Shown piece by piece: positions 11,353 through 44,889 of a stretch of 44,889 bases of DNA. How positions within the stretch are numbered: position 1 is the stretch's first letter; each line of letters begins with the position of its first letter. The notes below the pieces were generated by a model. The model made no database searches. It was not told the origin of the DNA and saw only the letters and a program-made list of their open reading frames with translations. The stretch is from positions 1 through 44,889 of the forward strand of contig CAZZNU010000001.1 in the NCBI GenBank assembly GCA_964655925.1. Direction: 5' to 3'. Source of the stretch: Candidatus Woesearchaeota archaeon. Its GTDB lineage: Archaea > Nanobdellota > Nanobdellia > Pacearchaeales > GW2011-AR1. The translations under genes were made by a program, and so were the position numbers.

Positions 11353-11353
11353 G

Positions 11354-12052
11354 ATGGATATTTGTGGATTAGAAAAAACCACGCTTATAGACTATCCAGG
11401 GAAAATTGCTTGTACGATTTTTTTATTCGGTTGTAATTTTAGATGTGGTTTTTGTTATAACGCAAGTTTGGTTTTAGACAAACCAGAAGGATGTTTATCT
11501 GAAGAGAAAATTTTTGAATTTTTAGAAGGTAAAAGGGGAAAATTAGATGCAGTTTGTATTACAGGTGGAGAACCACTCTTAACAGTAGAAAAAGATTTTT
11601 TAAGAAAGATAAAAGAAATGGGATTTTTACTTAAGATAGATACGAACGGAACAAGTCCGGACAAATTAAAAGAACTAATTGATGAAAAACTAGTTGACTA
11701 TATTGCTATTGATATAAAGAACTCAAAAGAAAAATACGATTTAACAACGGGAGTTGATACAGATATTTCTAAAGTGGAAGAGTCAATGAAAATAATATCA
11801 AACTTTGAAAATTATGAATTTAGAACGACAATTGTTCCTAAACTTCACACAAAAGAAGATATAGTAAATATTATAGATTGGTTTAAATCTTTAAACATAT
11901 TCCCACAAAGATATTACCTGCAAGGATTCAAAAACAAAGGGGATTTTATTGATGAAAAATATTCAAAATACCATAATGCGACTGCAAAGTATCTGTATGA
12001 ACTAAAGAAGATAATAAAACCATTTGTTCAGAAAGCTGGATTGAGGTATTGA
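11354..12052 (+). CDS. nrdG: Anaerobic RNR activating protein NrdG (radical SAM)
   Basis: It has the CNFRCGFCYN radical-SAM cluster motif, GGEPL, and a typical start MDICGLEKTTLIDYPGK. The track ORF begins at 11297, but those extra 19 codons overlap the glycyl-radical ORF in another frame. Confidence 0.85.
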   Translation: MDICGLEKTTLIDYPGKIACTIFLFGCNFRCGFCYNASLVLDKPEGCLSEEKIFEFLEGKRGKLDAVCITGGEPLLTVEKDFLRKIKEMGFLLKIDTNGTSPDKLKELIDEKLVDYIAIDIKNSKEKYDLTTGVDTDISKVEESMKIISNFENYEFRTTIVPKLHTKEDIVNIIDWFKSLNIFPQRYYLQGFKNKGDFIDEKYSKYHNATAKYLYELKKIIKPFVQKAGLRY

Positions 12053-12103: not shown

Positions 12104-12454
12104 TCACCCCAATCGCTTCGCAAATGTAAAAATTTTCCCGCTTATAATATCTATTTTCCCTACTAAATAATTTAACTCTTCTTCTGATATATAATTAAGA
12201 TTTTGTGCTATGATTAATTGACATTCTACTTCCTTAGCACTACCTAAAGACATATGTAAGAAATGTTTAAAATATTTATTTGAATTTCTTCCGGAGCCCT
12301 CTGCTATATTTGATGAGACACTTACAATTGCTCTTCTTATTTGGTTTGTTAACCCGTACATTTCCTCTTGTGGAAATTTTTTTGTGACCATATAAATTTC
12401 ATTTGTGAATTCAATAGATAACTTCCATATATCTAATTCCTTAAAATTATTCAT
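12104..12454 (-). CDS. Four-helix-bundle protein (23S rRNA intervening-sequence protein / Avd-like family)
   Basis: The 117-aa core MNNFKELDIWKLSIEFTNEIY...QIRRAIVSVSSNIAEGSGRNSNKYFKHFLHMSLGSAKEVECQLIIAQNLNYIS...KIFTFAKRL matches the family pattern (NIAEG.GR, F...A.GS..E). The ATG at 12454 is preferred over the TTG at 12583. Confidence 0.85.
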   Translation of the reverse strand: MNNFKELDIWKLSIEFTNEIYMVTKKFPQEEMYGLTNQIRRAIVSVSSNIAEGSGRNSNKYFKHFLHMSLGSAKEVECQLIIAQNLNYISEEELNYLVGKIDIISGKIFTFAKRLG

Positions 12455-12507
12455 CCATTCATTAACAGAATAAGTATTATATTTTTTATGACTAAATTGG
12501 GATAAGC

Positions 12508-12556
12508 CGTAAGCAGTAAACTGTAAACCGTAGACTGTAGACAGTAGACAGTAGAC
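12508..12556 (-). repeat. Heptanucleotide array C (7 units, opposite orientation), in the leader of the four-helix-bundle gene
   Basis: The plus strand reads CGTAAGC AGTAAAC TGTAAAC CGTAGAC TGTAGAC AGTAGAC AGTAGAC, which is the reverse complement of GTYTACN units. Confidence 0.85.
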
Positions 12557-12604
12557 TGCAAAATTTTTATCCAGAAAATTCAATAAAATTTAAATAGTCA
12601 TTAT

Positions 12605-22100: not shown

Positions 22101-25100
22101 AAATGCATCAAGACCTGCATAAATCCCTGGAATACAAACAAATCCATTTCCTATACAATAAACAATACTTCCTATAACCCCTGTTTGAGTAACATCCTGA
22201 ACTCTCCATTTGCCTTTCAAGTCACATCTATCTGATGGACACTCCACCCAATCACACACCTTCTGAACTCCTAAGCAATCTTGAGGACTCAAAAAGTCCA
22301 TACACTCAAAATCCATTAATGCAAAAAGTGTCTTTCCAACTGTAAATGTTTGTCCTAAAATATTTGCTGTATCACTTCCGTATTGTCTATTTGCTTCCAT
22401 AATCGCAGTATACGCTTTATTATACAAATCCTTGACTTGCGCCTCTGTATAACTCTCACACGGAGTAAATTTATCATAAATAGGATTTCTAACTTCAAAA
22501 CTTCTACATAAGTCTTGCCCCAATCCATAATTTATAGTATTATCCTTTCCAACATTACAAATGTAAAAATTCAAAACTTCTCCATTAGATGAATATGCTT
22601 TGACTCTGTCATCAAACACATCTCCTCTACTCGAAGAAACATAAGCGTACCATCCTCTTTCTCTGTCAAACGGTACAACCGCAGCTAATCCATTAACATT
22701 ACTTAACCCACCAAGCATTGAGCCTACTTCATAATATTCTATATTTCCAGTTGTAATCACATTAGAACAAGCATCATCTAACCTACTTTTTTTACTCGTA
22801 CTAGGTTTTTCTTCTTCTTTCTCATTAACATTATTTTCTACTTCTTTAGAATCTCCACGAACGAGCGGAAATAATGTGAACGAAAATAATATCTTTCCAC
22901 TTTGAGATTGAGTTTGTTGTTCTATTAGTGGAGCAAATTCCTTATTTACATCTCCAAGTATTGTTTTACAATAATAATCTTTATCGCCACAACCTCCATT
23001 AAAATCAGCAACAGAAGAAAACAAAGTATATTTCTCCATTTGAGATACAGACATATCATCTATTTCTAATGGAATAGTTACTCCATTCACATTAATAAAT
23101 AATTCACCACTTGCAGACTTCCACCCTCTCTCTTCAGAAGCATCATTTAATAGAGAGCCTGCTGATACTCTCTCATTCTGAGTCATTTTATAACTTTCTT
23201 TATATTTACTCTTCAAGTCTTTTACATCCTTTGAGTATTGTTTAACTGCCTTATTTATTGCATCATTATTATCTAATAAACACTTATCCATTCCATCTGG
23301 AGAGTCCCTACATCCTTCCTTAAACACTTGCATAACACTCATTCTATACAAAGCTTCTCCATTAGCTAACGCTGTAATCATTTTTATTGTAGTATATGTT
23401 CTAGCTACACCACAAACCGCATTCCAACCATTATGTATTACTTCTATTGCGTCTACAATATTTCCAACTATTCTTATAGTATCGTTCATCTCATCAGCCC
23501 TCTTCTTAGCTTTTTCTGGTGTTAGAGCAAAAAATCTTTTTTCTATTGGAATGTGGAATGTAAAATTCATTGCAATATCTCCACTATCTATCTTTGGTAT
23601 AATCCTTACTTTTGCAACATTATTATAATTCACATTGTCTAGTCTTAATCCTATAATTTTTTTATTTTCATTTTCAAAATATTTGCTCTCTCCTACAGCT
23701 AAACTTATACTCTCTCCTTTCACCCAAAAGACAGCACTATCTTCATTTATTCTTGATATAATAACACCGTACTCCTCAATATACTCTCCCTCTCTTTTAT
23801 TAGGGAATACATTATCTTCACCATCTACATTCAAATTAAAACTAACTGTAACACTTTTTTCGTCTGATAAAAAGTGAAAGTTGTTTATGATTATTGTTGA
23901 ACTCAAACCGTTTTGTAAATTAATATTCCTAGCCCCCTCACTTCTATCAACATTTTGCATCCCTTGTCCCATAATAGAAATTTCTGAGAAATGTTCTGAA
24001 TATTGAAATTCTTTTAAGTATCTATTTACAAGTTCTTTTTGAGTTTTTTCAAGACCTAAATCTCTAGCCAAAAATATAGAATCATATAGCGCCATCTCCG
24101 CATAATATTTCTCGTCTGGCGATTTTTCTTTTGGAAAGTTATTAAGTAATTCTGTCAAATCTTCTTTTATCAACTTAAAAGACTCTATATTTTTCTCTTT
24201 ATCTACCAATTCCTCTACATTTTTTCTACTTTTTAGTCTCAGTGTATAAATTTCACTTCCACATTTAATCATCACCTGTCCAACAGGAGCATCCTCGCAT
24301 TTAACACCATCTTTACTTCCAGCAATATCACAATCTTTTACTATCCTGTTAACCACACAAGCACCGTTTAGTATAGAATCACCTTCCCTTAACATGTAGT
24401 TCATTCCATCTATATTCAAATCTACTTTATTTTTTGCAGGCACTATCCCCTCAAACTTAACTCTAAACCCAGCCTTACATTCGTATCCAGGTAAATAAAC
24501 AACATCGCTTGTTTGACCTTCCTTCAAATTAAAAGAAGCATAGTTTTCTAAACCAAGCATGTTAAAAACAAGTTGAACCGATTCAGAACTATAATCTCTT
24601 ACCTTAACCAACCCCGTACTAGAAAGATATTCGCCCGTATTTCTCTCGTCCAAACTTAAATATAAAACCTCATCTTTAATTCTGTCATTAGTAACAAAAG
24701 TGTACTTTATGTTAGCTGTCAAAATACCTGTTACATATTTTTCTAGATTGTCTTCATTAGGCTGCTTTTTTAGTACAACAACTACATAACCTATATTTTC
24801 CAAAACATCATCAATAATCTTAGATGAACTTTTAGACAATGATGACCTGTATGGATGATAACTTATACTTCTCACTTCTTCAGGGTAATCTCCACTAAAA
24901 GAAATAGAAGATATAGCCGATGCTTGAATTAATGAATTTAGTCTAACTGCATTTAATTGGCACATCACACTAACATCTTGTTCTGCTAATAAATTACTAG
25001 TAACAACCGACGGAGTGCAAGAACTTATGAAAATATCAAAATCTGCCTTTGCTGGAGTACTACACACATCTCCAAAAGAGGTTTCTCCACCTGGGAAATT

Positions 25101-25235
25101 ATTAGGTGAATTGCCAAAAGAGCTACTTCCTGTTGGATTATTAAAATTATCTTCTGCAAAAACTAAACTCATGGTCATTAGTAAAACCAGACACATCATT
25201 AAACAATAAATCGTCCTTTTATTTACATCTACCAT
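19113..25235 (-). CDS. Giant (2040-aa) secreted protein with C-terminal Cys-rich repeats, putative adhesin
   Basis: Sec-type signal peptide (MMCLVLLMTMSLVFA/ED) and a large body with no recognisable family. Four tandem repeats of about 70 aa with 10 Cys each lie near the C-terminus. Its start overlaps the stop of the upstream gene (TAATG). Confidence 0.75.
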   Translation of the reverse strand: MVDVNKRTIYCLMMCLVLLMTMSLVFAEDNFNNPTGSSSFGNSPNNFPGGETSFGDVCSTPAKADFDIFISSCTPSVVTSNLLAEQDVSVMCQLNAVRLNSLIQASAISSISFSGDYPEEVRSISYHPYRSSLSKSSSKIIDDVLENIGYVVVVLKKQPNEDNLEKYVTGILTANIKYTFVTNDRIKDEVLYLSLDERNTGEYLSSTGLVKVRDYSSESVQLVFNMLGLENYASFNLKEGQTSDVVYLPGYECKAGFRVKFEGIVPAKNKVDLNIDGMNYMLREGDSILNGACVVNRIVKDCDIAGSKDGVKCEDAPVGQVMIKCGSEIYTLRLKSRKNVEELVDKEKNIESFKLIKEDLTELLNNFPKEKSPDEKYYAEMALYDSIFLARDLGLEKTQKELVNRYLKEFQYSEHFSEISIMGQGMQNVDRSEGARNINLQNGLSSTIIINNFHFLSDEKSVTVSFNLNVDGEDNVFPNKREGEYIEEYGVIISRINEDSAVFWVKGESISLAVGESKYFENENKKIIGLRLDNVNYNNVAKVRIIPKIDSGDIAMNFTFHIPIEKRFFALTPEKAKKRADEMNDTIRIVGNIVDAIEVIHNGWNAVCGVARTYTTIKMITALANGEALYRMSVMQVFKEGCRDSPDGMDKCLLDNNDAINKAVKQYSKDVKDLKSKYKESYKMTQNERVSAGSLLNDASEERGWKSASGELFINVNGVTIPLEIDDMSVSQMEKYTLFSSVADFNGGCGDKDYYCKTILGDVNKEFAPLIEQQTQSQSGKILFSFTLFPLVRGDSKEVENNVNEKEEEKPSTSKKSRLDDACSNVITTGNIEYYEVGSMLGGLSNVNGLAAVVPFDRERGWYAYVSSSRGDVFDDRVKAYSSNGEVLNFYICNVGKDNTINYGLGQDLCRSFEVRNPIYDKFTPCESYTEAQVKDLYNKAYTAIMEANRQYGSDTANILGQTFTVGKTLFALMDFECMDFLSPQDCLGVQKVCDWVECPSDRCDLKGKWRVQDVTQTGVIGSIVYCIGNGFVCIPGIYAGLDAFRSMLVEHQNCLNTRATTGEYVGSCDKIRSFYICEMVTKHAVSLVNSGLNWVGNLGISKLSGGSTYLNFLAQRKELNAIASNYIANYLSTSLDKLFDINLENVSYDLCNAIINTPSIGIGDGGKQSWLSGVWNSLSPTTGAQFTGSVSEKSYTDATTPPESIYSVFYSIYAGSKDRSYSVYLTDPSSISYDNTYVIAKGIIPARESKIENKDFTAISGYRKLCISVDGDTKCDFGVTSSLYGVNRVIDKILLADVNSTKITTEADCLSFSHGLNLIVDFVEGDNMLDSRNSISSVGITRVCASRNPESGASIVESDERWRNVGYCGDENVICWLDTKDINKVLSTIDPSEIKDIGIKRTVGSYEQFDTKLEEVKKKINSFAPEESVGDVKTYNEINKDLEDIIGTSSGATNSQKAYAYYLKISLNSILAKRGIVVEDGIAEDCVLSCLESMGEDNKEYCHNHCEKLVETISVSGFSYNSIKGEILYETRSTGICIKEGTGVYDYYLQSCSIPYTKFGYINEDKSISIISGHESKRIKGEDITFSALSDYSFIGGEFKKNIGLNLKENKIYYNYNYIDMYLSADRKIYDLSGKNIIASLNSNDIIVVSPEFKNREIIGVGFTYEELEKYRISNGALYKDADRVKDSCAKNGWTWLEDEKRCVECMSSSECGIGRVCSVDGMCVNDFCSSDLECGKGYFCDLFSGKCMDDFIKKEQICKDNGLFWITKDRKCVECLESSDCGIGKICSVDKMCVNDFCSSDLECDKGYFCDLTSGKCFEEFKESELDCKRSGFVWGGNELGCVECISSLDCGAGVCVKNVCVSDFCSSDLDCNSGYFCNLTSGKCINEFVREEERCIENKMVWITESRTCVECLVSLDCSVGKVCDEDNRCVNTYCSSDLECESGYHCDLFSGKCMYDYNFYVEGKHIVYGGERTKFFIDDKGKVKKSGILFFNKNVGKVLEDGAIVIDEKQKGEYIGIHKLVVLENYTFRDGVLEKK
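19353..20168 (-). repeat. Four tandem coding repeats (64-70 codons each) inside the giant ORF
   Basis: The protein repeats share C..(N/S)G..W.....(K/R/G)CVEC..S.(D/E)C..G..C.....CV(N/S)(D/T)(F/Y)CSSDL(E/D)C..GY.C(D/N)L.SGKC. The DNA period is about 205-210 nt (boundaries 19353, 19545, 19749, 19959, 20168). Confidence 0.85.
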
Positions 25236-27109
25236 TAGATAAACTCCATATTCAATTTAGAATTTTCGATGTTTAAATAATTTCCTTGCAACTCTTCTGA
25301 AGATGTAGGAACACCAAACATAGTTGGCCTAATTCTTACAGAATTTATATTTCTCAACATCTCACTTGTAAAATATTGCTCTATTTCTCCTCCACCAATT
25401 AAAACACGCTCCATTTTGATTTCAGGAATAGTTATTTCCTTACAATTATCAAACTCTATTCCAAATATTTCGCTAAATCCTGTAGATTGTTTTGTACAAT
25501 ATTGCTCTTTTTTGCTCGGAATAGTTATTTCAGTTCCTGAATAAATGTATGCACTTACAATATAATTATCTTCAGAAAGTTTGGCTACCTTGGTTTCTGG
25601 GTACATTATTGTCTCTATGTTATTATTGTTCTCTCCATAAAAACTCAACATAGCACTGTCTCCTTCCCTTAAATCTAAAATTTCAACATTCAATTCATAT
25701 TCCTTATACAATATCAAATCTAATACATCATTATTTCCTCCACTAGTGTAAACAAATTCTGTATCTCCAAATCCTTCTGCGCTAACTTTTACAACACCAT
25801 TTACACATGTTGGAATTAATCCAGAATAAACATATAATCCATTCCTATATACACTCTCTCCTAATTCACAGTTAGAAGAAACACAACTATAAGAAATCCT
25901 AGCTGGTATTGGGTTTAAATCTGAATCATATGTTTTTATGCTTACTCTTGAATTCATATTCTCGCACACCTTACTATTATAGTTAACACTGCTATTAATA
26001 TCCGGCAAAATTAACTCTCTTGGTTCATTATTATCAATAACCACTCTTATAGGAAATTGAAACACGAAATCCTCATCCCATATTTGAATTAGTACTGGAT
26101 ATCTTATATCATAAACTAAGTGTGTATATGAGAGACATACGCCCAATATCCCTGATATAGCATCTATTGGATTAACATTTTTCTCTCCATAAATATCAAT
26201 TACATTAGACCAATTTCTATCAAACAAAACTCTAGTATTTTCATCAAAATTCATTCCAGTATTTTTTACAAAATATCCATTATGCCTATCAAGTGAAGAG
26301 TCATAATAACTACCCTTAAATTTAATGAAATTTATATTTTGCTCTAATGCTTCTAAAAGATTATCTTTAATCTCATCCTCCTTATAATTAACAGAAGAAC
26401 AATCAAAACTAACATCTTCAACTGGAGCGTAATTCCATAAAACATCCATAGTGTATTTTTCTAAAAACATTTCTTGCTTCTCATAATCATATATTGACTT
26501 TGCTAATTTGTAATATTTACCTAGTTTTGATGGAACATTGATTTTGTGTTCATCTAATGAATAATATTTATCATCAAAATACATATCTACTTTGTTAATA
26601 ATTTCTACATTTACATTGTTATCATTTATTGTAACAAACGCCTTTCCTGAATTAATTATCACATTATATCCTTCATTTAACGCATTACTAAAATCACAAC
26701 TATTCAAATGTGAGCTTACATATTGTTCTAATTCTAACTCCATATCTCTTTTAGAGGGAACTTGCTCTACAAAAGAGCCATTATTAGACAAGTACAGCCA
26801 ATAAGGAATATGATTTCCAAATATCTCAAATTGAGAATTATATTCAGAATTAATAAATCCCAATATTAAGTTTGGTTTTTCAATATATCCAGCATTATCC
26901 CCTAAAAGCATTATTCCTTCTTTAACTGTGGATTCTACACAAGCCAAATATTGTTCATACACCCCTCTAAAGTCCTTTGGGACATTCGTCACCAACAGTT
27001 TATCTTTAAATGCAAAAAATAATATTGAACTAGATAGAATAATTATTCCTAAAATAATAAAAAGAGTTACTTGTCCCTTTTTACCTCCCCTCTTTTCAAC
27101 GCTATACAT
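25235..27109 (-). CDS. Large protein with class III (prepilin-like) signal peptide, cotranscribed with the giant ORF
   Basis: N-terminus MYSVEKRGGKKG/QVTLFIILGIIILSSSILFF. 624 aa with several Cys and no recognisable family. Confidence 0.6.
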   Translation of the reverse strand: MYSVEKRGGKKGQVTLFIILGIIILSSSILFFAFKDKLLVTNVPKDFRGVYEQYLACVESTVKEGIMLLGDNAGYIEKPNLILGFINSEYNSQFEIFGNHIPYWLYLSNNGSFVEQVPSKRDMELELEQYVSSHLNSCDFSNALNEGYNVIINSGKAFVTINDNNVNVEIINKVDMYFDDKYYSLDEHKINVPSKLGKYYKLAKSIYDYEKQEMFLEKYTMDVLWNYAPVEDVSFDCSSVNYKEDEIKDNLLEALEQNINFIKFKGSYYDSSLDRHNGYFVKNTGMNFDENTRVLFDRNWSNVIDIYGEKNVNPIDAISGILGVCLSYTHLVYDIRYPVLIQIWDEDFVFQFPIRVVIDNNEPRELILPDINSSVNYNSKVCENMNSRVSIKTYDSDLNPIPARISYSCVSSNCELGESVYRNGLYVYSGLIPTCVNGVVKVSAEGFGDTEFVYTSGGNNDVLDLILYKEYELNVEILDLREGDSAMLSFYGENNNNIETIMYPETKVAKLSEDNYIVSAYIYSGTEITIPSKKEQYCTKQSTGFSEIFGIEFDNCKEITIPEIKMERVLIGGGEIEQYFTSEMLRNINSVRIRPTMFGVPTSSEELQGNYLNIENSKLNMEFI

Positions 27110-35353: not shown

Positions 35354-38300
35354 CTAAATCATTCTGGCTCTATGTATCTCACTAACTATTATATTGTTTC
35401 TATCTTCCTCTCCTTCGTTATACACTCCACTAATAACAACCCCATCCTCTTCTTCTAAGTTCATAACATGATAGAACTCTTCAAATGTTCTAGGAAATAT
35501 TACACATTCACATGAATCTTTTTTGTTTACTATCTTTAGAAACGCCATTGTATCTCCGTTTTTTGTTTTTATTTTTTTAAATTCTTCTACAAGGCCAAAC
35601 ACAGAGACACTTTCTTTATCTGTAAACTTAAAATTGTTTAAGGCCTTAGACCTTGATTCTACATACAAATCAATTAAGTTATAAGAGACACAAACACCCA
35701 CCAATTCTTTTTCAGATTCTATTATCTCTTTAATTGTCATCTTCTTAGGCAAATCTTCTTCTTTCTTTGTTGGTTCACCAAACAGTGTCGTCTGTTTATT
35801 ATGTTTTTTATTCTTGCTTTCCACTTCAGACAAAAGCTCCCCTCTGTTTATACCAAAATTATCAAAGCACCCTACAGATATTAAATTTTTTAAAACCCTT
35901 TTATTGACTTTTGATGCATCTATTTTTGCAACAAACTCTTTGTACGAATTATATGGTCTATTGGATAATATTGATTCTATCGCACTATTCCCAACATTTT
36001 TTATGCCTCCAAGACCAAATCTAATTATTTTTTTTCTACCCATCTGTTCAATATTAAAACCCACTAAAGATGTGTTAATATCTGGACCTAAGACATTTAT
36101 GTCCATATTTCTTGTTTCCTTCAAATATTTCCTCATTTTTTTTGTATCGCTCACACTTGAAGAAAGCACCGCTGCCATAAATTCTACCGGATAGTGTTTT
36201 TTAAGATACATTGTTCTATATGCCACTAGTGCATATGCTGCTGCATGACTTTTATTAAATGAGTAGTCAGCAAATTTTACAATATCATCCCATAATTTCT
36301 CAACATCACCCTTCTTCATTTTCGCAATAGATAAACATCCTTTTTTGAATTTTTCCTCCATACTTTTCATCAAATCCAATTTTTTCTTACCTATTGCTTT
36401 ACGCAATATATCCGCTTCAGACATACTAAATCCTGCTAACTTTTGAGCTAATTTCATAACCTGCTCTTGGTACACCATAATTCCATATGTTGAAGACAAA
36501 ATTTCTTCTGTTAACTTATGTGGATATATTACTCTTTCTTTTCCCTTTTTCCTATTAGCATAGACTTCTAAATACTGCATAGGTCCTGGCCTGTAAAGCG
36601 CAACTATTGCAATTATATCATCAAAATTTGTAGGTCCAACCATCTTCAATGATTTCTGCATTCCCTGACTTTCAAGCTGAAATATTCCAACACTATTTCC
36701 TTCTCTAAACATTTCGTACACACCATCATCATCTAATGGTATATTTTCAAACCAATTATCATCTTTCTCTATAAAATCTAAAACTTTTTTTGTTATATTT
36801 AATGTTTCAAGTCCTAGGAAGTCAAACTTTAGTAAACCAATGTCTTCTATTTCTCGTCCTTCTAACTGACTAACAATATATCCATCTCTTTCCATAACTG
36901 GCATATAATTTACAATTGGCTCCTTCCCCCAGACAACACCACAAGCATGGACTCCTTTGTGTCTGACACATCCTTCTAACCTCATTGCTATCTGAAATAT
37001 TTCTGGATATTCTTCTTTAAACCTATTTAATTCGGTATTTGACAATCTTCCAGAAGAACTCTTTTTTTCTAAACTTTCTTTAATTGTTTTTCCTTCAACA
37101 TACTCTGTTATTTTATTTGCTATATTAAATGGTATTTTAAAAACTCTCATTACATCCTTCAATACTGATTTGGCACTCATTGTTCCATATGTACCAATTA
37201 AAGCAACCTTATCTTCTCCATATTTTTCTTTTACATAATTTATAACTATATTTCTGTCTCCAAAATCAATATCAAAATCAGGCAAACTAATTCTTTCTGG
37301 ATTAAGAAATCTTTCAAATAATAAATCCAAATGTAATGGTTCTAGTTGAGTTATCCCCAATAAATATGCAACAATGCTTCCAGCTCCACTTCCTCTTCCT
37401 GGCCCTACTTGGCATTTTTTCTTAGCAGAAATTATAAAATCTTGCACTATCAAAAAATATGTAGAATATCCCATTTTTTTTATTACAGATAGCTCATACT
37501 CCATCCTTTCCCTTGCTTTTTCATAGTTACTTTTTCCACTATATATTTTTTCTAGGCTTTCTGTACATAGTTTTGTCAGATATTCATCATGACTGTAACC
37601 TTCTGGTGGCTCGTATTCTGGAAATATTGTTTCTCCTAATTCCAATTCCACATTACACATATCTGCTATTTTTTTCGTATTATCGAGTGCGTCTGGTCTA
37701 TCCGAAAATCTTTCAAACATTTCCTCTTTATTCATTAGGTAATACCCATCTCCATTAAATTGAAAGTGTTTTGGGTCATCTAAAAAACCATTAGTTTGTA
37801 TACACAACATAACTTCATGTGCTCTTGCATCCTCTTTTAATAAATAATGTGCATCGCACGCAGCAACTAAGTTTAGCCCATATTCTTCCGCCCATTTGTA
37901 GTATACATCTCTTACTTTTTTTTCATCTAAAATATTATGGTTTTGTACCTCTAAATAAAAATTATCTTTTCCAAATATTTCTAAATATTCATCTAAATTA
38001 CTTTTAGCTTTTTCAAGGTTGTCGTTCACAATCTCTGTTGCGATATCATTTGCCAAACATGCACTTGTACATATAAGACCTTCGCTATATTTCTTTAATA
38101 TATTTTTATCTATTCTTGGCTTGTAATAAAATCCCTCGCAAGATGCAATAGAGCTTAGCTTCATCAAGTTTTTGAAACCTATGTTATTCTTGGCTAACAA
38201 AACTAAATGTCCTCTATGTTCATTTTTATCCTTTACGCTTATATCTCTTACAACATATGCTTCCATTCCAAAAATCAATTTCACCCCTACTTTTTTTGCC

Positions 38301-41300
38301 TCTTGGTATTTATTTACAAACGACTCCATATTTCCATGTTCTGTAATAGCAACACTGTCCATCCCTAATTCTTTTACACGCTTAAATAAATCCTTAACCC
38401 TTATTGAACCATCTAAAAAACTAAACTCTGTATGTAAGTGTAGATGCACAAAGTCAACATCCTTAGCATCTTTTTTAGATTTTGTATTCTTGTCTTTTAC
38501 ATGTTCTTTTATATTCTCTTTGTTTTCAATATATTTTCTATCTATTTCTTCACTTTCTTCATTCAATTTTATCTGTTTATCAGAACCGAATATATCATGA
38601 ATATATTTTTGTGCTATATTTACACACTCAACAGTGTACTCACTAACATCATATTTCTTTGTTAACTCTATAGCCGTATCTAAATATTTTTTAATAGATG
38701 CGTATGATACCGTCATCAAAAGATTCCCTTCACACCTTCGGCAAGTTCCTATCAAAGGCACCCTACGATGTTTTAAACCACAAGAAGAGCATCTAAACTG
38801 CTGTTTAAAAAATCTTGATAAATTTCCTATAATATCTTTTAAAAAATGTTTTTCTATTATCATCTTAGCTACATTATCTTTGTCAACAGCCCTTATCTTT
38901 TCAGCCAACTCCATTTGTTTTTCTACTTTTTCCTTCATATTGTTTAGTAATTTATACATGCCATTTACTTCACCCTGATTTATATCAAATGTATCATGTG
39001 TAAATCCTATATTAGAAAAACAAGATATCTTTTTTTTCATTCTCTCTTTTACATTTTTATTTTTTACATTACTAGAATGTTCTTTATTTAGAGATTTTTC
39101 ATACAATTCTAAATCATATTTATCGGCTAAATCATATTCTAATATTTGATCATCTACTTCACCTGGATTAATCTTACTGTTTAAAATAAGTGGCGCATCT
39201 TGAGTTCCACCTCTATGCTTTGGTAAAAACTCTTTATTAAAATTTAACAAAACATCCATTAGCATCATCACACTCATTTCATCACCATCGCAATCTCTTC
39301 TAATGGCTGCATGCATGTACGGACTAGCCATTATCCCTTGCATTTGAGAAAAACCTATTATTCTTCCAACAACTCCTGCACAATTGTGGGGTGCCATACA
39401 GACAACTAATTGTCCTACTAAATCTTTTTTGCTTTTTACATTATAATATCTATCTAAAGAATAAATTTTTTCCAATTCTTCATCTATAAAATTACATATA
39501 TTAGAGAAAACATCAATAGATGACATACTTCCAGAATCGTTAAAACTTGATAGTACTATATCGTGCGGTTTTAATTCAATAATTTGTTCTTCTGAGATTA
39601 TTTCATTTCCATTTATGTCAATATTATATCCTATTTCTTTTAGTTTTTCTATAGATGCATTTATTTCTTTAGGTTTAAAATGAGTCAAAGGTACTTCTGT
39701 ACCATCATACCTAATCGTCCCATCTTTATTAACACCAAGATTATAGAGGCTTCTTAATATTCCTTTTCTAATATCTTCCTCTTTATCACATTTTTTCATT
39801 CCCCTAACAGAACTCAATATTTTTTTATCATATTTATTTTCTTCTATAAACTTCACAGCACTTATGTAGACTTTTGATGTTTGATTGACTGTTGACTGTT
39901 GACTGTTGACTGTTGACTGTAGACTGTTGACTGTTGACTGTTGACTGTAGACTGTTGACTGTAGACTGTTAACAGTAGATGTTACCGAATTAAATGTTGT
40001 TTTTCTCAGCCTTGCTTTTTCTGGGCGCCCCATCCTAGCCCCTATAAATTCTCCACTTTTATCTTTTATTTCATACTCAGCAAATTCGTTAATTAGTGCT
40101 AGAATATCTTTTCGTCTCTCTGACTTTGAAATTATATCTTCTAATTTATTTTCATTACTTCCAATGTTTATAAATAGAGATTTAGCAACATCTTTTTCTA
40201 TAACAACATTATCTAAAACAACTTCATGTGGGACTCCTAGTAATTCCAAACTTCTTTTGCCAACATTATACTTCTCTTTAGAAATATTCCCATACGGTAA
40301 TATAAATTTTTCCTCTATCCAATTTCCCTCTTTTATCCATATCAATAGTTTTACAAAATCTTCTACATCTATTTGGTTCCAAAAATAAATGAATTCTGGA
40401 TGCAATGGTATAGAATATTTTTTACTTATTCTTATAGCTAAATCTAAACTTATATCATTTTTATCGTACTCTATATAGTCATTAAGTATTTCCATTTTAT
40501 TTTTCAGGTCCAAATCCCACCATTCTTCTACATATGCAGACTTTAACAAAATAGAATTTCTATCAACCACATCCCCTAAAGACACTAACATATCTCCTAA
40601 ATAAATTATTTCTTCTGTTTCTTTGTAAAGTTTTTTCCCTTCTTCAAATGTTTTTATTTTTCTTACACTACCGTTTTTTAGTTTCACTATTGGTCCATCT
40701 ATACTATCACAAGAAGTGATAATTGCTCCCTTTATTGGTTTTTCAATTTTTAGTTGAGTCCCTAAAGATAAAAAACTATTACTAATACCCATCGTTGCTG
40801 GACTAATTGACACTGCACTAAATCCACTATTTCTACTTTTACCATATCTGAATCTAAAAGAACCACCTCTTGATGGATATCCAAAAATGGGTCTCCCTGC
40901 TACTAAATCTTTTATATAAACAGCATCCCCTGTATGTCCTTCAATAGACTTTGAGTGAATAAGAGAGTATTCTCCAAGATAATCAAATCCAGAAGATATT
41001 ATACCATGTTTTTTTACTTCTTTTAGTCTTGCTAGTGCCTTTTGTGCCTTTTGTGCTAATCCTTCACATAAAACTAAACACATGCCTCCACGAATTTTAT
41101 TCTCTGGCACTCTTTTTAAATTTCTATACTCACTAACTTCTATATTTTCTGTAGGCTCCCCGTCAATTTGAATTGGTATGTTTTTTACTAAAAATTTTAA
41201 TTCTTCTTCTGTTGGTAAATACTGCAAATTTGAGACTTTCTCATTATAATCTATACATTCTATATAGTATCTATTAATTTCTTCTTCTGTTGGAATATAT

Positions 41301-41896
41301 TTAGAATACTCGAAATGTTCCCTCAAATAATCTACAAGCATTAGAAAAACACATGTAGTCGTCGTTCCCGCACTTCTTATTGGTCCTGAAAATTTTACAT
41401 TGAAAAATTCCTTATTATCTTCTTTTACTAGAGTTAGTCCTGTATATCCCTCTATAGGACTAGCAACAACACCTAATGTTAAATAGGCAAATCCTATCCT
41501 TAGCCCAGCATCTATAGAATCAATTTTTTTATCGAAATTATAAAACTTGTTCTCGGCTATTTCTCTTGCTATTATAAAGGCTATCGTTGGATTTTGTTTC
41601 CCATATTTTTCTTCAAGTTCTTCTATTCTTTGACTAATTTCTTCTACAGGAAGGAAAGAATATATTGTTTTTATTAAATTTACACTTCTTTCAGCCACCG
41701 ACTTGGCTATTGGAATATCCACATCCAAAGAAAAGTCTATCCCTCTTTTTTTTGCTAAAAGTGCAACATCGTATGATTTTTTTATTTTATTATTCAATTC
41801 CTCAAAATATTCATCCTCATCCCAATATTTTACTCCCCTATCTTCTACCATTTTTAGAGAACTCAAAAATAATTTATATAGATTTTTATACAGCAA
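35354..41896 (-). CDS. Fusion protein: DNA polymerase D large subunit (DP2) + linker + bacterial-type DNA polymerase III alpha (DnaE)
   Basis: The DP2 part (about 38585-41896) has GARMGRPEKA, APHNCAGVVGRIIGF, AAIRRDCDGDE, RGGTQDAPL and FRCSSCG...CRRCEG. A 42-aa K/E-rich linker (38459-38584) has no Met and no stop. The DnaE part (35357-38458) has PHP motifs FVHLHLHTEFSFLDGS, ITEHGNM and ACDAHY, then GPGRGSGAGSIVAYLLGIT, LPDFDIDF, KFDFLGLETL, FNKSHAAAYA, a QTTLF clamp-type motif and a C-terminal OB fold. An alternative start is Met16 (41851). Confidence 0.85.
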   Translation of the reverse strand: MLYKNLYKLFLSSLKMVEDRGVKYWDEDEYFEELNNKIKKSYDVALLAKKRGIDFSLDVDIPIAKSVAERSVNLIKTIYSFLPVEEISQRIEELEEKYGKQNPTIAFIIAREIAENKFYNFDKKIDSIDAGLRIGFAYLTLGVVASPIEGYTGLTLVKEDNKEFFNVKFSGPIRSAGTTTTCVFLMLVDYLREHFEYSKYIPTEEEINRYYIECIDYNEKVSNLQYLPTEEELKFLVKNIPIQIDGEPTENIEVSEYRNLKRVPENKIRGGMCLVLCEGLAQKAQKALARLKEVKKHGIISSGFDYLGEYSLIHSKSIEGHTGDAVYIKDLVAGRPIFGYPSRGGSFRFRYGKSRNSGFSAVSISPATMGISNSFLSLGTQLKIEKPIKGAIITSCDSIDGPIVKLKNGSVRKIKTFEEGKKLYKETEEIIYLGDMLVSLGDVVDRNSILLKSAYVEEWWDLDLKNKMEILNDYIEYDKNDISLDLAIRISKKYSIPLHPEFIYFWNQIDVEDFVKLLIWIKEGNWIEEKFILPYGNISKEKYNVGKRSLELLGVPHEVVLDNVVIEKDVAKSLFINIGSNENKLEDIISKSERRKDILALINEFAEYEIKDKSGEFIGARMGRPEKARLRKTTFNSVTSTVNSLQSTVYSQQSTVNSLQSTVNSQQSTVNQTSKVYISAVKFIEENKYDKKILSSVRGMKKCDKEEDIRKGILRSLYNLGVNKDGTIRYDGTEVPLTHFKPKEINASIEKLKEIGYNIDINGNEIISEEQIIELKPHDIVLSSFNDSGSMSSIDVFSNICNFIDEELEKIYSLDRYYNVKSKKDLVGQLVVCMAPHNCAGVVGRIIGFSQMQGIMASPYMHAAIRRDCDGDEMSVMMLMDVLLNFNKEFLPKHRGGTQDAPLILNSKINPGEVDDQILEYDLADKYDLELYEKSLNKEHSSNVKNKNVKERMKKKISCFSNIGFTHDTFDINQGEVNGMYKLLNNMKEKVEKQMELAEKIRAVDKDNVAKMIIEKHFLKDIIGNLSRFFKQQFRCSSCGLKHRRVPLIGTCRRCEGNLLMTVSYASIKKYLDTAIELTKKYDVSEYTVECVNIAQKYIHDIFGSDKQIKLNEESEEIDRKYIENKENIKEHVKDKNTKSKKDAKDVDFVHLHLHTEFSFLDGSIRVKDLFKRVKELGMDSVAITEHGNMESFVNKYQEAKKVGVKLIFGMEAYVVRDISVKDKNEHRGHLVLLAKNNIGFKNLMKLSSIASCEGFYYKPRIDKNILKKYSEGLICTSACLANDIATEIVNDNLEKAKSNLDEYLEIFGKDNFYLEVQNHNILDEKKVRDVYYKWAEEYGLNLVAACDAHYLLKEDARAHEVMLCIQTNGFLDDPKHFQFNGDGYYLMNKEEMFERFSDRPDALDNTKKIADMCNVELELGETIFPEYEPPEGYSHDEYLTKLCTESLEKIYSGKSNYEKARERMEYELSVIKKMGYSTYFLIVQDFIISAKKKCQVGPGRGSGAGSIVAYLLGITQLEPLHLDLLFERFLNPERISLPDFDIDFGDRNIVINYVKEKYGEDKVALIGTYGTMSAKSVLKDVMRVFKIPFNIANKITEYVEGKTIKESLEKKSSSGRLSNTELNRFKEEYPEIFQIAMRLEGCVRHKGVHACGVVWGKEPIVNYMPVMERDGYIVSQLEGREIEDIGLLKFDFLGLETLNITKKVLDFIEKDDNWFENIPLDDDGVYEMFREGNSVGIFQLESQGMQKSLKMVGPTNFDDIIAIVALYRPGPMQYLEVYANRKKGKERVIYPHKLTEEILSSTYGIMVYQEQVMKLAQKLAGFSMSEADILRKAIGKKKLDLMKSMEEKFKKGCLSIAKMKKGDVEKLWDDIVKFADYSFNKSHAAAYALVAYRTMYLKKHYPVEFMAAVLSSSVSDTKKMRKYLKETRNMDINVLGPDINTSLVGFNIEQMGRKKIIRFGLGGIKNVGNSAIESILSNRPYNSYKEFVAKIDASKVNKRVLKNLISVGCFDNFGINRGELLSEVESKNKKHNKQTTLFGEPTKKEEDLPKKMTIKEIIESEKELVGVCVSYNLIDLYVESRSKALNNFKFTDKESVSVFGLVEEFKKIKTKNGDTMAFLKIVNKKDSCECVIFPRTFEEFYHVMNLEEEDGVVISGVYNEGEEDRNNIIVSEIHRARMI
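39882..39986 (+). repeat. Heptanucleotide array E (about 14 units) in frame inside the DP2 coding region
   Basis: The plus strand reads TGATTGA, CTGTTGA x4, CTGTAGA, CTGTTGA x3, CTGTAGA, CTGTTGA, CTGTAGA, CTGTTAA, CAGTAGA, TGTTACC. It is translated as TSTVNSLQSTVYSQQSTVNSLQSTVNSQQSTVNQ, a 7-aa period as expected for a 7-nt unit. Confidence 0.9.
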
Positions 41897-41985: not shown

Positions 41986-42645
41986 TTACTTGAAAAGCTT
42001 CTCAAATTCTGCTTTTTGTGGTATATCATAAAAAAGTACTTCATTATTGACTATAACAACAGGATATTTATCTATTTCGTATTCAGATAAAATTGTATCT
42101 AGTGAAACCAATTCTTGATTTACAGCTATTGGTACTAAGATTATTTCATCCCCATATTCTTTTTTAATTTCACCTAGAAATTTAGACCATGTATTTTGAT
42201 AAGCTTGTTGAGTTAATTCTTTTGTCTCGTATTCATATAAATAAACAACGAGATTATAATTTGAACATTTATTAATCATAGAACCAGATATATCCCAAAG
42301 CATTGTTCTTAAAACATCATACTTTCTATGCACTATTTTTATATCATCAAAAATTTCAGAAAATTCTTCATATTTTTCTAGTAACTCAGCCTCTTTATAA
42401 ATTCTATTTGCCAACTTTATTGATTCTTCTTTAATAAAATCACATGTACTGTTTTCATCTATAAAGTTAGAGGCTAGATACATATCAAACATAGTTACCT
42501 GAGAATTAAGATACGCTTCATTCATTTCGTTAACGTTTTTACTTTCAATATTCATTCCAATTAATATTCCAAATACAAACACCATTATTGTAAATATGAA
42601 CGCTTCTAAAAATGTCCTTCTATTTTTTGATTCCATATCTACCAA
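41986..42645 (-). CDS. Hypothetical membrane-anchored protein
   Basis: 219 aa with one N-terminal TM helix (FLEAFIFTIMVFVFGILIGM) and a soluble C-terminal domain. It overlaps the GT2 gene by 7 nt, so the two are probably cotranscribed. Confidence 0.4.
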   Translation of the reverse strand: MVDMESKNRRTFLEAFIFTIMVFVFGILIGMNIESKNVNEMNEAYLNSQVTMFDMYLASNFIDENSTCDFIKEESIKLANRIYKEAELLEKYEEFSEIFDDIKIVHRKYDVLRTMLWDISGSMINKCSNYNLVVYLYEYETKELTQQAYQNTWSKFLGEIKKEYGDEIILVPIAVNQELVSLDTILSEYEIDKYPVVIVNNEVLFYDIPQKAEFEKLFK

Positions 42646-43868
42646 GTACTATATCCTCTAAGGTATTTTATAAGAGATACTATTAATATAGCCGGATATA
42701 AAAATACATAAAGTAATGAATATATAAGTATTTCGTGAACCTTATATTTTACATCCTTTTCTCTATTGTATACAATTGATAACATTAAAAAAGCAGTACT
42801 TATAGATAGCAAAAATATTCCTAAAAAAAATAACATAGTTGGGTTTATCATTAAATCTTTCATAGTAATAATTGCGATTTGAGACTCTATTGCTAATTTA
42901 GTAGACAATAATCTTACAAAGATATAATTAAATGCCCTATATGCAAAAACAAATAATCCCGAAACTCCTATTACCCAAGACATTATAAAATACGGAATTA
43001 TGAATTTACCCAAAATTCCAGTACGCATCATTTTGGGAGAATATTGTTTCGTTGTTTGAAATCCACCAACATTCCAACGTACTCTTTGCTTGAACCAAAC
43101 CTTTAATTTACTTGGAACTTCTGTATATACTATCGCATTAAATGCCATCCTTACTTTATATCCTGCATTAACTATGTGCCATGTTAATTCTATATCCTCA
43201 GTTAAGTTAACTTCATCGAACCCTCCTACTTCATCAAAAACATCTTTTTTATAAATTGATAAAGGTCCATTTGCAACATATATTGAATCTATAAATTCCA
43301 TTATTTTTCTAGTAAACGCAATTGTCTTATACTCAACTGATTGCATTTTCTCTAACATATTATTACAATTTTCTACAAATACTCTAGAAGTAACACACGC
43401 CACGTCCCTTTCTTCCAGATATCCTATCATATACGATATAGAATCTTTTTTACACGCAGAATCTGCGTCTGAAAAACCTATTAATTCTGTATTTACAAAT
43501 TTTGCCCCATAATTTTTAGAGCCTGCCGCTCTACCTGTATTTTTAGGAGTTCTGAGAGCCAACACTTTACCTTTATATTTTTTTTCGCATTCTTTTATTT
43601 TCTGAAAAGAATTATCTTTAGAACAATCATCCACAACTATAATTTTTTTTAATCCTGGGTAATCTGATTTTAGCAATTTTTCTATTGTTCTTACAATCGT
43701 CTTTTCTTCATTATAACAAGGGATAACTATTGACAATGGTTTAGCCCTAGCGTATTTCGGATCATTAAAGATTTTATCTGAATTTTTTAGATAGATGATA
43801 ACGAATAGTATAACAAAGTAAAATGCAAAAAACGTGTAAAAGTAATATAAAAAGGTTAAACCATCCAT
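42639..43868 (-). CDS. Family 2 glycosyltransferase, processive (NodC / chitin / PNAG synthase-like)
   Basis: SIVIPCYNEE, VVDDCSKD, FSDADS, TEDIELTW and QRVRWNVGG (QxxRW), with N- and C-terminal TM helices. Confidence 0.8.
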   Translation of the reverse strand: MDGLTFLYYFYTFFAFYFVILFVIIYLKNSDKIFNDPKYARAKPLSIVIPCYNEEKTIVRTIEKLLKSDYPGLKKIIVVDDCSKDNSFQKIKECEKKYKGKVLALRTPKNTGRAAGSKNYGAKFVNTELIGFSDADSACKKDSISYMIGYLEERDVACVTSRVFVENCNNMLEKMQSVEYKTIAFTRKIMEFIDSIYVANGPLSIYKKDVFDEVGGFDEVNLTEDIELTWHIVNAGYKVRMAFNAIVYTEVPSKLKVWFKQRVRWNVGGFQTTKQYSPKMMRTGILGKFIIPYFIMSWVIGVSGLFVFAYRAFNYIFVRLLSTKLAIESQIAIITMKDLMINPTMLFFLGIFLLSISTAFLMLSIVYNREKDVKYKVHEILIYSLLYVFLYPAILIVSLIKYLRGYSTW

Positions 43869-43904: not shown

Positions 43905-44889
43905 TTACACAATACTATCTTTTTGATTGTCATCATTAAAATCCAATACTTTTACTTCTTTTGTTTTAAGATTCACAAGTGGAACTTTGCATAAATCTGG
44001 GTTAAGTCCTCTTTTTTCCAAAAATTTCGTATTTTTCATCCAGCAAGAGCCATTTACTAATAACACATTGTTTTTAATGTCTATATTACTTCTATGAAAA
44101 TGTGAAGTGAATATTATATCTGGTATTTCATTTAAAATAAAAGAATTATTTTTATCTATCATAAAATCAACATCCCCATATGGCATAGATATTTGACTCG
44201 TGTTTAAAAATTCCTTGATTAAAACATTAGGATTTTCATATTTATATTTATTTTTAATTTCATTTTTCTCATTGATTAAATTATACATATTATTTCCATG
44301 ATAAGAAAAGACTTTTATTCCTTTTTCTAATATTACAGTAGATGGATTTCCTATGAAAAAAATATTTTCTCTATCTTTTAATTCTTCAAAATAATTCTGA
44401 TTTATTTTTGGTTGTGGTTCTCCTTTCCATACAGAATCTCTATTTCCTGGAATTACGAAAATTTGCAAATCATTCCTAAATAGTTTTAGTAAATCTTGAG
44501 CTTTTTTATATTGTCCATTTATAGTTTTTATTAACAAATCTTTTTCTTGACCATTATATTGTCCAACTCCATCTATTAAATCTCCTCCAATAAATAAATA
44601 TTTTACTTTTTTAGAAATATTACTATAATTTTGGCTATTATCTTTATTATTTATCCATTTTATAAAATTCAGAAAATTCTTTTCTAAAAAATTAATAGAG
44701 CCACAATGAATATCTGCAATAAATGCAACCCAACAATCGTCATCCGTTTTTTTATTACTATTTGTTTTTATTTTTGGGAATATTAAGTCATTTGCTAATA
44801 ACAATCCATTTAAAATATTTCCTCTAATTAAAACAATATCATCTAAAAATATTTTTTTTACCTTATCATATAAAATATTATTATTCTTA
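43905..44889 (-). CDS. DNA polymerase D small subunit (DP1), 5'-truncated by the window edge
   Basis: Calcineurin/Mre11-type phosphoesterase motifs IADIHCGS, IGGDLIDG, VIPGNRDS, YHGNN and TSHFH. The track start at 44804 is a TTG. I checked that the frame stays open upstream to position 44889 (KNNNILYDKVKKIFLDDIVLIRGNILNG...), so the OB-fold part lies outside the window. Confidence 0.85.
   Translation of the reverse strand, partial: KNNNILYDKVKKIFLDDIVLIRGNILNGLLLANDLIFPKIKTNSNKKTDDDCWVAFIADIHCGSINFLEKNFLNFIKWINNKDNSQNYSNISKKVKYLFIGGDLIDGVGQYNGQEKDLLIKTINGQYKKAQDLLKLFRNDLQIFVIPGNRDSVWKGEPQPKINQNYFEELKDRENIFFIGNPSTVILEKGIKVFSYHGNNMYNLINEKNEIKNKYKYENPNVLIKEFLNTSQISMPYGDVDFMIDKNNSFILNEIPDIIFTSHFHRSNIDIKNNVLLVNGSCWMKNTKFLEKRGLNPDLCKVPLVNLKTKEVKVLDFNDDNQKDSIV

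Follow-up and report, generated by a model that had tools for sequence, protein, structure and literature searches.

Bacteria, most archaea and eukaryotes rely on unrelated replicative polymerases, which belong to family C, family D and family B, respectively. Two polymerases of the replicative class are found at one fork in B. subtilis (PolC and DnaE) and in eukaryotes (Pol alpha, delta and epsilon), and the catalytic subunit of Pol epsilon carries two polymerase modules on one chain. The members of these pairs are homologous, C with C and B with B, and apart from the Pol epsilon modules they are separate proteins. Here, we describe a gene in a 44,889-nucleotide stretch of archaeal DNA (the window: positions 1 to 44,889 of contig CAZZNU010000001.1, assembly GCA_964655925.1, Candidatus Woesearchaeota archaeon) that encodes both DP2, the large subunit of the archaeal replicase PolD, and a complete bacterial-type polymerase III alpha subunit, DnaE, in one open reading frame (ORF). 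Unlike in the two-polymerase replisomes above, a double-psi beta-barrel (DPBB) polymerase and a Pol-beta-like nucleotidyltransferase, which have unrelated folds, are covalently joined in this protein.

The closest described system is the stand-alone DNA polymerase III alpha that adjoins the PolD genes in Pacearchaeota (Castelle et al., 2021, Front Microbiol, PMC8204110); its text does not mention a fusion. A search with the DnaE half returned more than 120 clusters of stand-alone archaeal DnaE of the same family, about 1040 aa long and 54–62% identical, which carry, where a name is given, the names Pacearchaeota, Nanoarchaeota or 'archaeon'. These proteins share with the window DnaE an intact metal site in the PHP domain, the absence of a C-terminal domain (CTD) and the place downstream of DP2 and its small partner subunit DP1, near cdc6/orc1. 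In these unfused relatives, however, the genes are separate and DP1 keeps its residue His451, whereas here we find one ORF without an internal Met in its linker, and the His451 of DP1 is lost.

A second parallel involves another polymerase family. Inactivation of DP1 in Aenigmarchaeota and Heimdallarchaeota has been attributed to a proofreading PolB with a DP2-like CTD, and tied to the origin of the eukaryotic B subunits (Kazlauskas et al., 2020, PMC7544198). The Aenigmarchaeota B6 and Heimdallarchaeota B10 polymerases and eukaryotic PolB with its B-subunit resemble our locus in that a foreign proofreading polymerase is joined to a DP2 C-terminal/DP1 module, and in that the DP1-type subunit loses its nuclease site. 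The joined polymerase belongs to family B in B6 and B10, whereas here it belongs to family C and lies C-terminal to a complete, apparently active DP2, whose polymerase domain it has not supplanted. Compared with canonical PolD of P. abyssi and T. kodakarensis (6HMS, 6T8H, 6KNB), the window protein retains the catalytic DGD, the Zn-III site and the KxRRxP loop, but it lacks the Zn-I/Zn-II cysteines, its PCNA-interacting (PIP) box is degenerate, its DP1 is without His451, and a DnaE of 1035 aa is appended. Bacterial DnaE1 (Taq, 2HPI; M. tuberculosis, 5LEW/7PU7) shares with the DnaE half 40–46% identity, the domains through the OB fold, nine PHP ligands, three Asp and a clamp pentapeptide; it differs in having the tau-binding CTD of about 100 aa and in not being fused to DP2.

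A single, vertically inherited fusion of DP2 and DnaE

The fused gene is a single ORF on the minus strand, 2180 codons long when counted from a TTG in the ORF list and its translation (Table 1). The ATG at 41851, at which the homologues also begin, is the likely start and would give a protein of 2165 aa. A preliminary description of this DNA had proposed that DP2 and a complete DnaE share the ORF, and Pfam profiles indeed match both halves over their full length. The cut-offs of the NCBIfam whole-protein models of DnaE are exceeded (PRK05673, 1132.7 bits, cut-off 1002; TIGR00594, 1083.6 bits, cut-off 434). On the DP2 side, TIGR00354 passes its cut-off of 702 with 996 bits and PRK04023 stays under its cut-off of 1269 with 1118.8 bits, and the DP2 half aligns with P. 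abyssi DP2 nearly end to end (E = 6e-216). All motifs quoted in that description are in place, namely GARMGRPEKA, HNCAGVVGRIIGF, RRDCDGDE, RGGTQDAPL and CxxC...CxxC in DP2, and FVHLHLHTEFSFLDGS, ITEHGNM, ACDAHY, GPGRGSGAGS, PDFDIDF, KFDFLGL, NKSHAAAYA and QTTLF in DnaE. Judged by sequence, one polypeptide carries two unrelated replicative polymerase cores with intact catalytic residues, as had been claimed. Reading the interval 35354–41896 on the plus strand gave a translation full of stops and was discarded.

At least 11 distinct fused genes, 57–73% identical, were found in independent assemblies on contigs of up to 635 kb. Eight other proteins of 2153–2367 aa, with the same eight domains and 58–68% identity, emerged when 5.8 billion proteins were searched; they stem from JGI, ENA, NCBI and Logan assemblies, in some cases from contigs of 371 and 382 kb. 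Two GTDB species representatives labelled Candidatus Woesearchaeota (L003, on the 635-kb contig CAZTFL010000001.1, and L004) contain fused ORFs of 2151 and 2155 aa, and GCA_964518625.1 (L156) contains an additional fused gene of 2212 aa. At the fused loci the gene order cdc6/orc1, DP1, DP2::DnaE is constant. In a neighbour-joining tree, the 10 distinct fused DnaE halves group in a single clade that contains no unfused sequence, and archaeal DnaE is monophyletic with respect to the bacterial sample. This rough outgroup consists of 69 bacterial DnaE loci from a scan of contigs with the DnaE half, for which K/E-rich patterns were chosen and which also returned two relevant archaeal loci.

Among nine aligned fusions, mean pairwise identity is 62% for DP2, 70% for DnaE and 26% for the linker, and the pairwise identities of the two halves correlate with r = 0.94. 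The linkers are acidic and lysine rich, vary from 39 to 158 aa and are always in frame. Taken together, the in-frame linkers, the single clade and the correlated halves indicate that the fusion arose once and was passed on vertically. It is a genuine, vertically inherited fusion of one subclade of Pacearchaeota/Woesearchaeota-like DPANN archaea. The search of related genomes that the preliminary description had asked for thus returned fused genes and, in addition, unfused relatives with neighbouring DP2 and dnaE.

The 42 residues that had been described as linker in the window are of low complexity and contain neither Met nor stop; the first of them, DKQIKL, however, are a remnant of the DP2 PIP box and do not belong to the linker proper. 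At the local base composition, 42 stop-free codons would occur by chance with a frequency of about 2%, and decisive evidence for the linker therefore comes from its conservation in frame across the nine fusions. An assembly chimera, or an overlooked stop or frameshift at the junction, could be suspected because the window stems from a metagenome-type assembly and because an exact-sequence look-up of its protein found no identical record. Eleven fused genes that were assembled independently and share architecture and synteny speak against such an artefact, as do the uniform base composition (GC about 0.30) and the co-evolution of the DP2 and DnaE halves. The DnaE half matches the composition of the contig, with a GC content of 0.29–0.33 throughout the gene and its flanks. 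The artefact is effectively refuted and its residual probability negligible, and a contaminant or chimeric join, which the preliminary description had argued against, is ruled out by the independent genes, the monophyletic fused clade and the co-evolving halves.

Public databases already contain fused ORFs, either without a name or under the label 'DNA polymerase III subunit alpha'. The literature searched, which did not extend to most subscription journals, yielded no account of a DP2-DnaE fusion. The novelty claimed earlier therefore holds for the fusion as such, but not for stand-alone DnaE, its adjacency to DP2 or the unnamed fused ORFs, which were already on record. The fusion, its exact association with the loss of the DP1 catalytic histidine, and the tie of PIP-box decay to dnaE appear not to have been described before.

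In unfused relatives, dnaE lies 0–1.3 kb downstream of DP2. The DP2 stop and dnaE start overlap by 11 nt in L097, 14 nt separate the two open frames in L079, the gap amounts to 0.4 kb in L074 and 1.3 kb in L078, and one 84-aa ORF stands between the genes in L001. No family match was obtained for the small ORFs that separate DP2 from dnaE at unfused loci. DP2 and dnaE thus exist as separate adjacent genes in these five relatives and as one gene in the fused clade, the constellation on which a Rosetta-stone argument is built. Fused and unfused loci share the order PRC-barrel gene, gap, cdc6/orc1, DP1, DP2, then dnaE or the fusion, which is a classic origin-proximal replication cluster. The gap between the PRC-barrel gene and cdc6/orc1, about 0.45–0.6 kb long, is conserved upstream of DP1 (L001, 6444–8479; L002, 6337–8270; L154, 4466–6388; L156, 8028–9957) and is probably the replication origin. 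A nearby gene annotated as 'phage integrase' likely encodes a XerA-type chromosomal recombinase and is not a sign of phage.

Several DnaE-bearing unfused relatives have an NT5C (5'-deoxynucleotidase) domain at the N-terminus of DP2. DP2 proteins with other fusions are P0016 (L001, 10001–14029), P0011, P0014, P0020, P0022, P0027, P0080, P0084 and P0098, the last with an HD domain, and a separate NT5C gene lies close to the fused gene of P0006. Inteins, recognized by LAGLIDADG and intein-splicing domains, occur in most Pacearchaeota DP2 genes and in some archaeal DnaE genes (P0204, P0211); the fused genes contain none.

Changes in DP1 and DP2 that accompany DnaE

The DP1 partner gene, which had been expected upstream of the fusion, was located at the edge of the window (Table 1), and its product is 56% identical to residues 213–506 of a 521-aa DP1. 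The active site of the nuclease is described here by eight residues, P. abyssi D360, H362, D404, N450, H451, H497, H560 and H562. Window DP1 has the signature DHDNRHHH, in which His451 is replaced by Arg in the motif PGNRDS, and it therefore departs from the eight-residue pattern of an active nuclease. This histidine acts as the catalytic proton donor, and the proofreading-deficient form of PolD in standard use is H451A (PMC6355029); the PDB entries 6HMF and 5IHE differ exactly at this position. A truncated paralogue of 299 aa was considered for window DP1 and rejected, as the frame is open to the window edge and the relatives have 491–503 aa at the same position.

All DP1 proteins that adjoin fused genes or fall into the same DP1 subclade are without His451 and have R or N instead. 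Their signatures are DHDNRHHH (window, L003, L004, P0410, P0412), DHDERHHH (P0409/L157), DHDSRHSH (L156), DHNDRHNH (L002), DHDSNHNH (L154) and DHDTRHNH (L155), so that positions 404, 450 and 560 vary as well. His451 is kept in all of about 180 other DP1 sequences. The canonical DHDNHHHH is found in 38 of 60 DP1 from DP2 loci without dnaE, and DHDQHHDH is the usual type in Pacearchaeota (99 of 120). The N450Q/H560D variant was tried as a marker of DnaE acquisition and dropped, because it was also seen where the PIP box is canonical and dnaE is missing from the surrounding 10 kb. The distance of the DP1 phosphodiesterase (PDE) domain to outgroups is 0.56–0.62 in every fused lineage and 0.52–0.545 in every unfused DnaE-bearing lineage. 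By contrast with this domain, the N-terminal domain and the OB fold of DP1 are conserved, and full-length DP1 from fused loci (491–543 aa) aligns throughout.

These data bear on the possibility that the fusion is neutral, a Rosetta-stone case in which the stop between two translationally coupled neighbours was lost in a streamlined genome, in which PolD and DnaE work just as in the unfused relatives and to which the fusion contributes no new function. Such a history would fit with DP2 and dnaE being already overlapping or adjacent in unfused relatives, with a poorly conserved linker of variable length, with the other DP2 fusions (NT5C, HD) in the same archaea and with a decay of the PIP box that is older than the fusion (see below). 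We nevertheless regard it as unlikely, since the fusion persists in lineages that have diverged to about 57% identity and none of the 11 genes has reverted, since the loss of His451 coincides exactly with the fused clade and is not seen in unfused DnaE-bearing relatives, and since all fused lineages show faster evolution of the DP1 PDE domain.

The catalytic centre of DP2 is conserved. RRDCDGDE aligns with RRNCDGDE of P. abyssi and is invariant in the nine fusions and 37 DP2 sequences, and the KH-like and DPBB motifs, Zn-III and the KxRRxP loop are invariant, too. The KxRRxP loop of Zn-III docks DP1 (Raia et al., 2019). The PIP box at the DP2 C-terminus presents a different picture. In P. abyssi it binds PCNA and primase (PMC7101311), and where a locus has no dnaE, the DP2 sequence finishes with the canonical PIP box EKQxxLxxWF. 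In the window only KQIKL is left and the aromatic pair is gone, and the pair is lost in all nine DnaE-linked DP2, fused or unfused. As unfused DnaE-bearing relatives also lack it, this loss predates the fusion. Locus L080, where only 1 kb of sequence follows DP2, has a truncated PIP box with the DP2 tail IFGKDERQVTL and the unusual DP1 signature DHDQHYGH; its genome is probably a DnaE-bearing one in which dnaE falls outside the contig.

A further change is confined to the branch of the window. The window protein, P0001 and P0002 lack the Zn-I/Zn-II cysteine clusters of clamp-2, which are present in P0003–P0008 and in at least 90% of the 37 DP2 sequences, and P. abyssi DP2 residues 672–789 have no counterpart in window DP2. 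Zn-II of PolD is not strictly conserved (Raia et al., 2019). In place of the two clusters, a 7-nt repeat of about 14 units, TTGACTG/TAGACTG on the plus strand, encodes TSTVNSLQSTVYSQQSTVNSLQSTVNSQQSTVN; it is missing from the closest relatives. As the unit length of seven is not divisible by three, adding or removing a single unit would shift the reading frame of the entire DP2::DnaE ORF. The distance of DP2 to the outgroup is 0.41 in half of the fused clade, 0.40–0.43 in unfused relatives and 0.49–0.50 in the window subclade, while the rate of DnaE is unchanged.

This erosion raises the possibility that displacement of PolD is nearly complete, with DnaE as the sole working replicase and DP2 as a scaffold to DP1, GINS and CMG whose polymerase is dispensable or lost. 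PolD accessories are eroding (DP1 His451, the PIP box, Zn-I/Zn-II in the window subclade), and the segment lost relative to P. abyssi includes the PCNA-contacting clamp-2 residues E692, K779 and Y781 (PMC7101311). Moreover, the window subclade shows an evolution of DP2 that is about 17% faster, conservation is stronger in the DnaE half than in the DP2 half, and eukaryotes offer a parallel, in which the polymerase domain of DP2 was exchanged but the CTD and an inactive DP1 persisted (PMC7544198). On the other hand, the DP2 catalytic motifs and about 1049 well-aligned columns are strongly conserved, and half of the fused clade has no acceleration of DP2 relative to unfused DP2. The catalytic residues of DP1 have drifted over the same divergence, which implies that unused sites do decay on this timescale. 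We therefore judge this scenario to be quite improbable. DP2 itself is still under purifying selection and not decaying; a 'snapshot of displacement', as suggested earlier, is possible, with this selection counting the other way.

The DnaE module and its surroundings

The PHP domain of the window DnaE has the signature HHDHEHCDH, equal to that of Taq DnaE. HHDHEH[C/H]DH is the published criterion of an active PHP domain (PMC12926913), and by this criterion the archaeal PHP domain would be an active proofreader. The complete PHP signature together with three palm Asp is found in 123 of 129 archaeal DnaE, fused and unfused; the remaining six are N-terminally incomplete, and the Asp triad is present in all 129. 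PDFDxDF, KFDFLGL and the PHP motifs are invariant in the alignment of nine fusions. QTTLF aligns exactly with QLDLF of E. coli alpha (5FKU) between the HhH and OB domains, which bears out its earlier placement at the internal beta-clamp motif, and the wider KQxTLFG is conserved throughout archaeal DnaE, whether fused or not, and without variation among the fusions. We know of no tau and no beta clamp in the host archaeon, and dnaN, tau and other bacterial replisome genes were not found within the window or the neighbourhoods of about 20 kb around related loci.

The tau-binding CTD is absent, as the protein stops after the OB fold. PRK05673 is matched only up to position 1059 of 1146, the alignment with E. 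coli alpha ends at residue 1052 of 1160 and that with Taq at 1110 of 1220, and bacterial DnaE neighbours are longer by about 100–150 aa. In bacteria, a CTD of about 100 aa binds tau and holds DnaE1 in the replisome (PMC3919608). The lack of this domain, together with the conserved KxRRxP loop and the conserved N-terminal domain of DP1, is consistent with the idea in the preliminary description that DnaE is recruited through the DP1/DP2 scaffold.

It also leaves room for an accessory role, in which DnaE would act in gap filling, in translesion synthesis or only as a PHP nuclease or phosphatase, with PolD as the sole replicase. In bacteria, DnaE2 and DnaE3 have non-replicative or auxiliary roles and often no CTD (PMC3919608), and archaeal DnaE is without CTD as well. 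In contrast, archaeal DnaE has both an intact PHP metal site and a clamp-type motif, features that characterize DnaE1 and PolC and that DnaE3 and most DnaE2 lack (PMC3919608). Furthermore, the DnaE module scores as DnaE1 type and not DnaE2, with PRK05673 over its cut-off and the model of error-prone DnaE2 (ImuC), PRK05672, at 549 bits far under its cut-off of 939. Given, in addition, the location of the gene in an origin-proximal replication operon, we allow only a slim chance for a purely accessory DnaE.

With respect to its source, archaeal DnaE forms a tight family. Among 1.84 billion cluster representatives, scores fall sharply from about 1000 to 828 bits where bacterial DnaE begins, and these next-scoring bacterial proteins have 1130–1220 aa and 40–46% identity. 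The donor was not identified in this search, in which a Bacillota DnaE from Thermoflavimicrobium is the sole named neighbour.

The rest of the window is otherwise archaeal chromosome, with genes for SecY, SRP54, TFB, NAC, a RIO kinase, an S-layer protein, archease and Trm5. The two genes between DP1 and the fusion occur in the same order in L003, L004 and L157 and are specific to the window subclade; at the other fused loci DP1 lies immediately upstream of the fusion. An anaerobic ribonucleotide reductase cluster on the plus strand (8699–12052) comprises NrdD, a radical-SAM activase and an NrdR-like regulator with Zn ribbon and ATP cone; regulators of the NrdR type are found mainly in bacteria. 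A gene of the 23S rRNA-intervening-sequence protein family (12104–12583, minus strand; PF05635, E = 2e-37) adjoins a gene for an S-layer-like protein. Two large adjacent ORFs on the minus strand, 19113–25235 (2040 aa) and 25235–27109 (624 aa), have no Pfam match, and neither have the ORFs 15868–18027 (719 aa) and 6703–7926 (407 aa).

Table 1. Position of the fused gene, its domains and motifs, and the DP1 region in the window (aa numbering of the fused protein).
Feature	Position (nt)	Strand	Basis and remarks
Fused DP2::DnaE gene	35354–41851	-	ORF open from TTG 41896; stop codon 35354–35356
DP2 N-terminal domain, aa 29–297	41006–41812	-	Pfam PolC_DP2_N, E = 1.4e-75; aligns with P. abyssi DP2 residues 12–283
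DP2 central domain, aa 325–633	39998–40924	-	Pfam PolC_DP2_central, E = 2.4e-88; GARMGRPEKA at its end, 40013–40042
Segment in place of the Zn-I/Zn-II cysteine clusters of clamp-2	39824–39997	-	Contains heptanucleotide tandem repeat 39885–39983, encoding an S/T/V/Q-rich insert
DP2 catalytic domain, aa 692–990	38927–39823	-	Pfam PolC_DP2_cat, profile 6–299 of 299, E = 1.7e-98
DP2 catalytic-domain motif HNCAGVVGRIIGF	39350–39388	-	
DP2 catalytic motif RRDCDGDE	39278–39301	-	
DP2 catalytic-domain motif RGGTQDAPL	39188–39214	-	
Zn-III Cys4 module and DP1-docking KxRRxP loop, CSSCGLKHRRVPLIGTCRRC	38732–38791	-	Translation; C, K, RR and P invariant in fusions
Degenerate DP2 C-terminal PIP-box remnant (DKQIKL), then K/E-rich linker, 42 aa together	38459–38584	-	Translation
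PHP domain of DnaE, aa 1151–1320	37937–38446	-	Pfam PHP, E = 1.5e-55; nine metal ligands complete
Pol III alpha palm/NTPase domain, aa 1438–1695	36809–37585	-	Pfam DNA_pol3_alpha, profile 1–260 of 260
Palm catalytic aspartates in PDFDIDF	37262–37282	-	
Palm catalytic aspartates in KFDFLGL	36809–36829	-	
Pol III alpha fingers, aa 1699–1855	36332–36802	-	Pfam DNA_pol3_finger, E = 7e-57
NKSHAAAYA (fingers motif)	36230–36256	-	Slightly outside the Pfam finger envelope
(HhH)2 duplex-DNA/clamp-binding domain, aa 1933–2020	35837–36100	-	Pfam HHH_6, E = 8.3e-23; aligns with Taq, E. coli and M. tuberculosis alpha
QTTLF, beta-clamp-type pentapeptide	35780–35794	-	At the place of the internal clamp-binding motif of E. 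coli alpha
C-terminal OB fold, aa 2097–2174	35375–35608	-	Pfam match weak (16.7 bits); aligns with OB region of Taq and E. coli alpha
DP1 (PolD small subunit), PDE domain	43905–44889	-	Pfam Metallophos and DNA_pol_E_B; cut by window end
Two genes between DP1 and fusion	41986–43868	-	GT2 glycosyltransferase 42639–43868; 219-aa ORF 41986–42645, no family match

A possible two-polymerase replicase and its meaning

An ancestor carried a bacterial-type dnaE directly downstream of the PolD genes, in the origin-proximal cluster of cdc6/orc1, DP1, DP2 and dnaE, and a single loss of the DP2 stop then joined DP2 and dnaE. The product would consist of a PolD module, in which DP2 docks DP1 via Zn-III and KxRRxP, and a DnaE1-like module on a disordered tether of 39–158 aa. 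DnaE may be held at the archaeal fork by PolD, at first through operon-encoded association and later through the covalent tether; we propose this because the tau-binding CTD is absent. The PHP exonuclease may supply proofreading in place of DP1, a step proposed because the DP1 of exactly the fused clade has lost its proton-donor His and its metal ligands are drifting. DP1 would then persist as a structural subunit, akin to the eukaryotic B subunit, and the two polymerases might divide the labour between leading and lagging strand, or between primer extension and bulk synthesis.

On balance, the motifs and their distribution lean somewhat towards a covalently tethered two-polymerase replicase in which the PHP nuclease of DnaE has probably replaced DP1 proofreading. 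A more far-reaching form of this reading is a true hybrid replicase, in which the horizontally acquired bacterial family C polymerase took over proofreading via PHP and probably also the hand-off of clamp or primer, while PolD keeps its polymerase activity and anchors the complex to CMG; this form we put forward tentatively, as a possibility below even chances.

Several points weigh against the tethered replicase. Since the PIP-box loss predates the fusion, part of the remodelling follows from the acquisition of DnaE and not from the fusion. That both polymerases are active is read from their motifs. In the window, DnaE could be initiated separately at an in-frame GTG at 38449 (Val of FVHLH), which has an AAGGA about 10 nt upstream (about 38463–38467); the linkers of the fusions share no conserved start codon, and the Met of unfused DnaE is lost. 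The tree that places the fused halves in one clade was built without bootstrap support and with a small bacterial outgroup. Finally, window DP1 is altered at His451 alone, all seven metal-ligand positions being canonical, and a DP1 with Arg451 might retain some nuclease activity. Some metallophosphoesterases are without this His.

Work on the evolution of replication has long asked how a cell can survive the displacement of one replicase by another. These archaea offer a graded natural series, from PolD alone, through dnaE downstream with a decayed PIP box, to the fusion with the DP1 His lost and the window branch with Zn-I/Zn-II lost, which makes the question testable with recombinant proteins. 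By the Rosetta-stone argument, the fusion suggests that PolD and DnaE cooperate physically in the many Pacearchaeota with separate genes. The locus also parallels, independently, the route by which the inactive B subunits of eukaryotes are proposed to have originated. If the hybrid replicase is real, this lineage would be a living intermediate of non-orthologous replicase displacement, and it would parallel, with another polymerase family, the step thought to have yielded eukaryotic PolB and its B-subunit from PolD.

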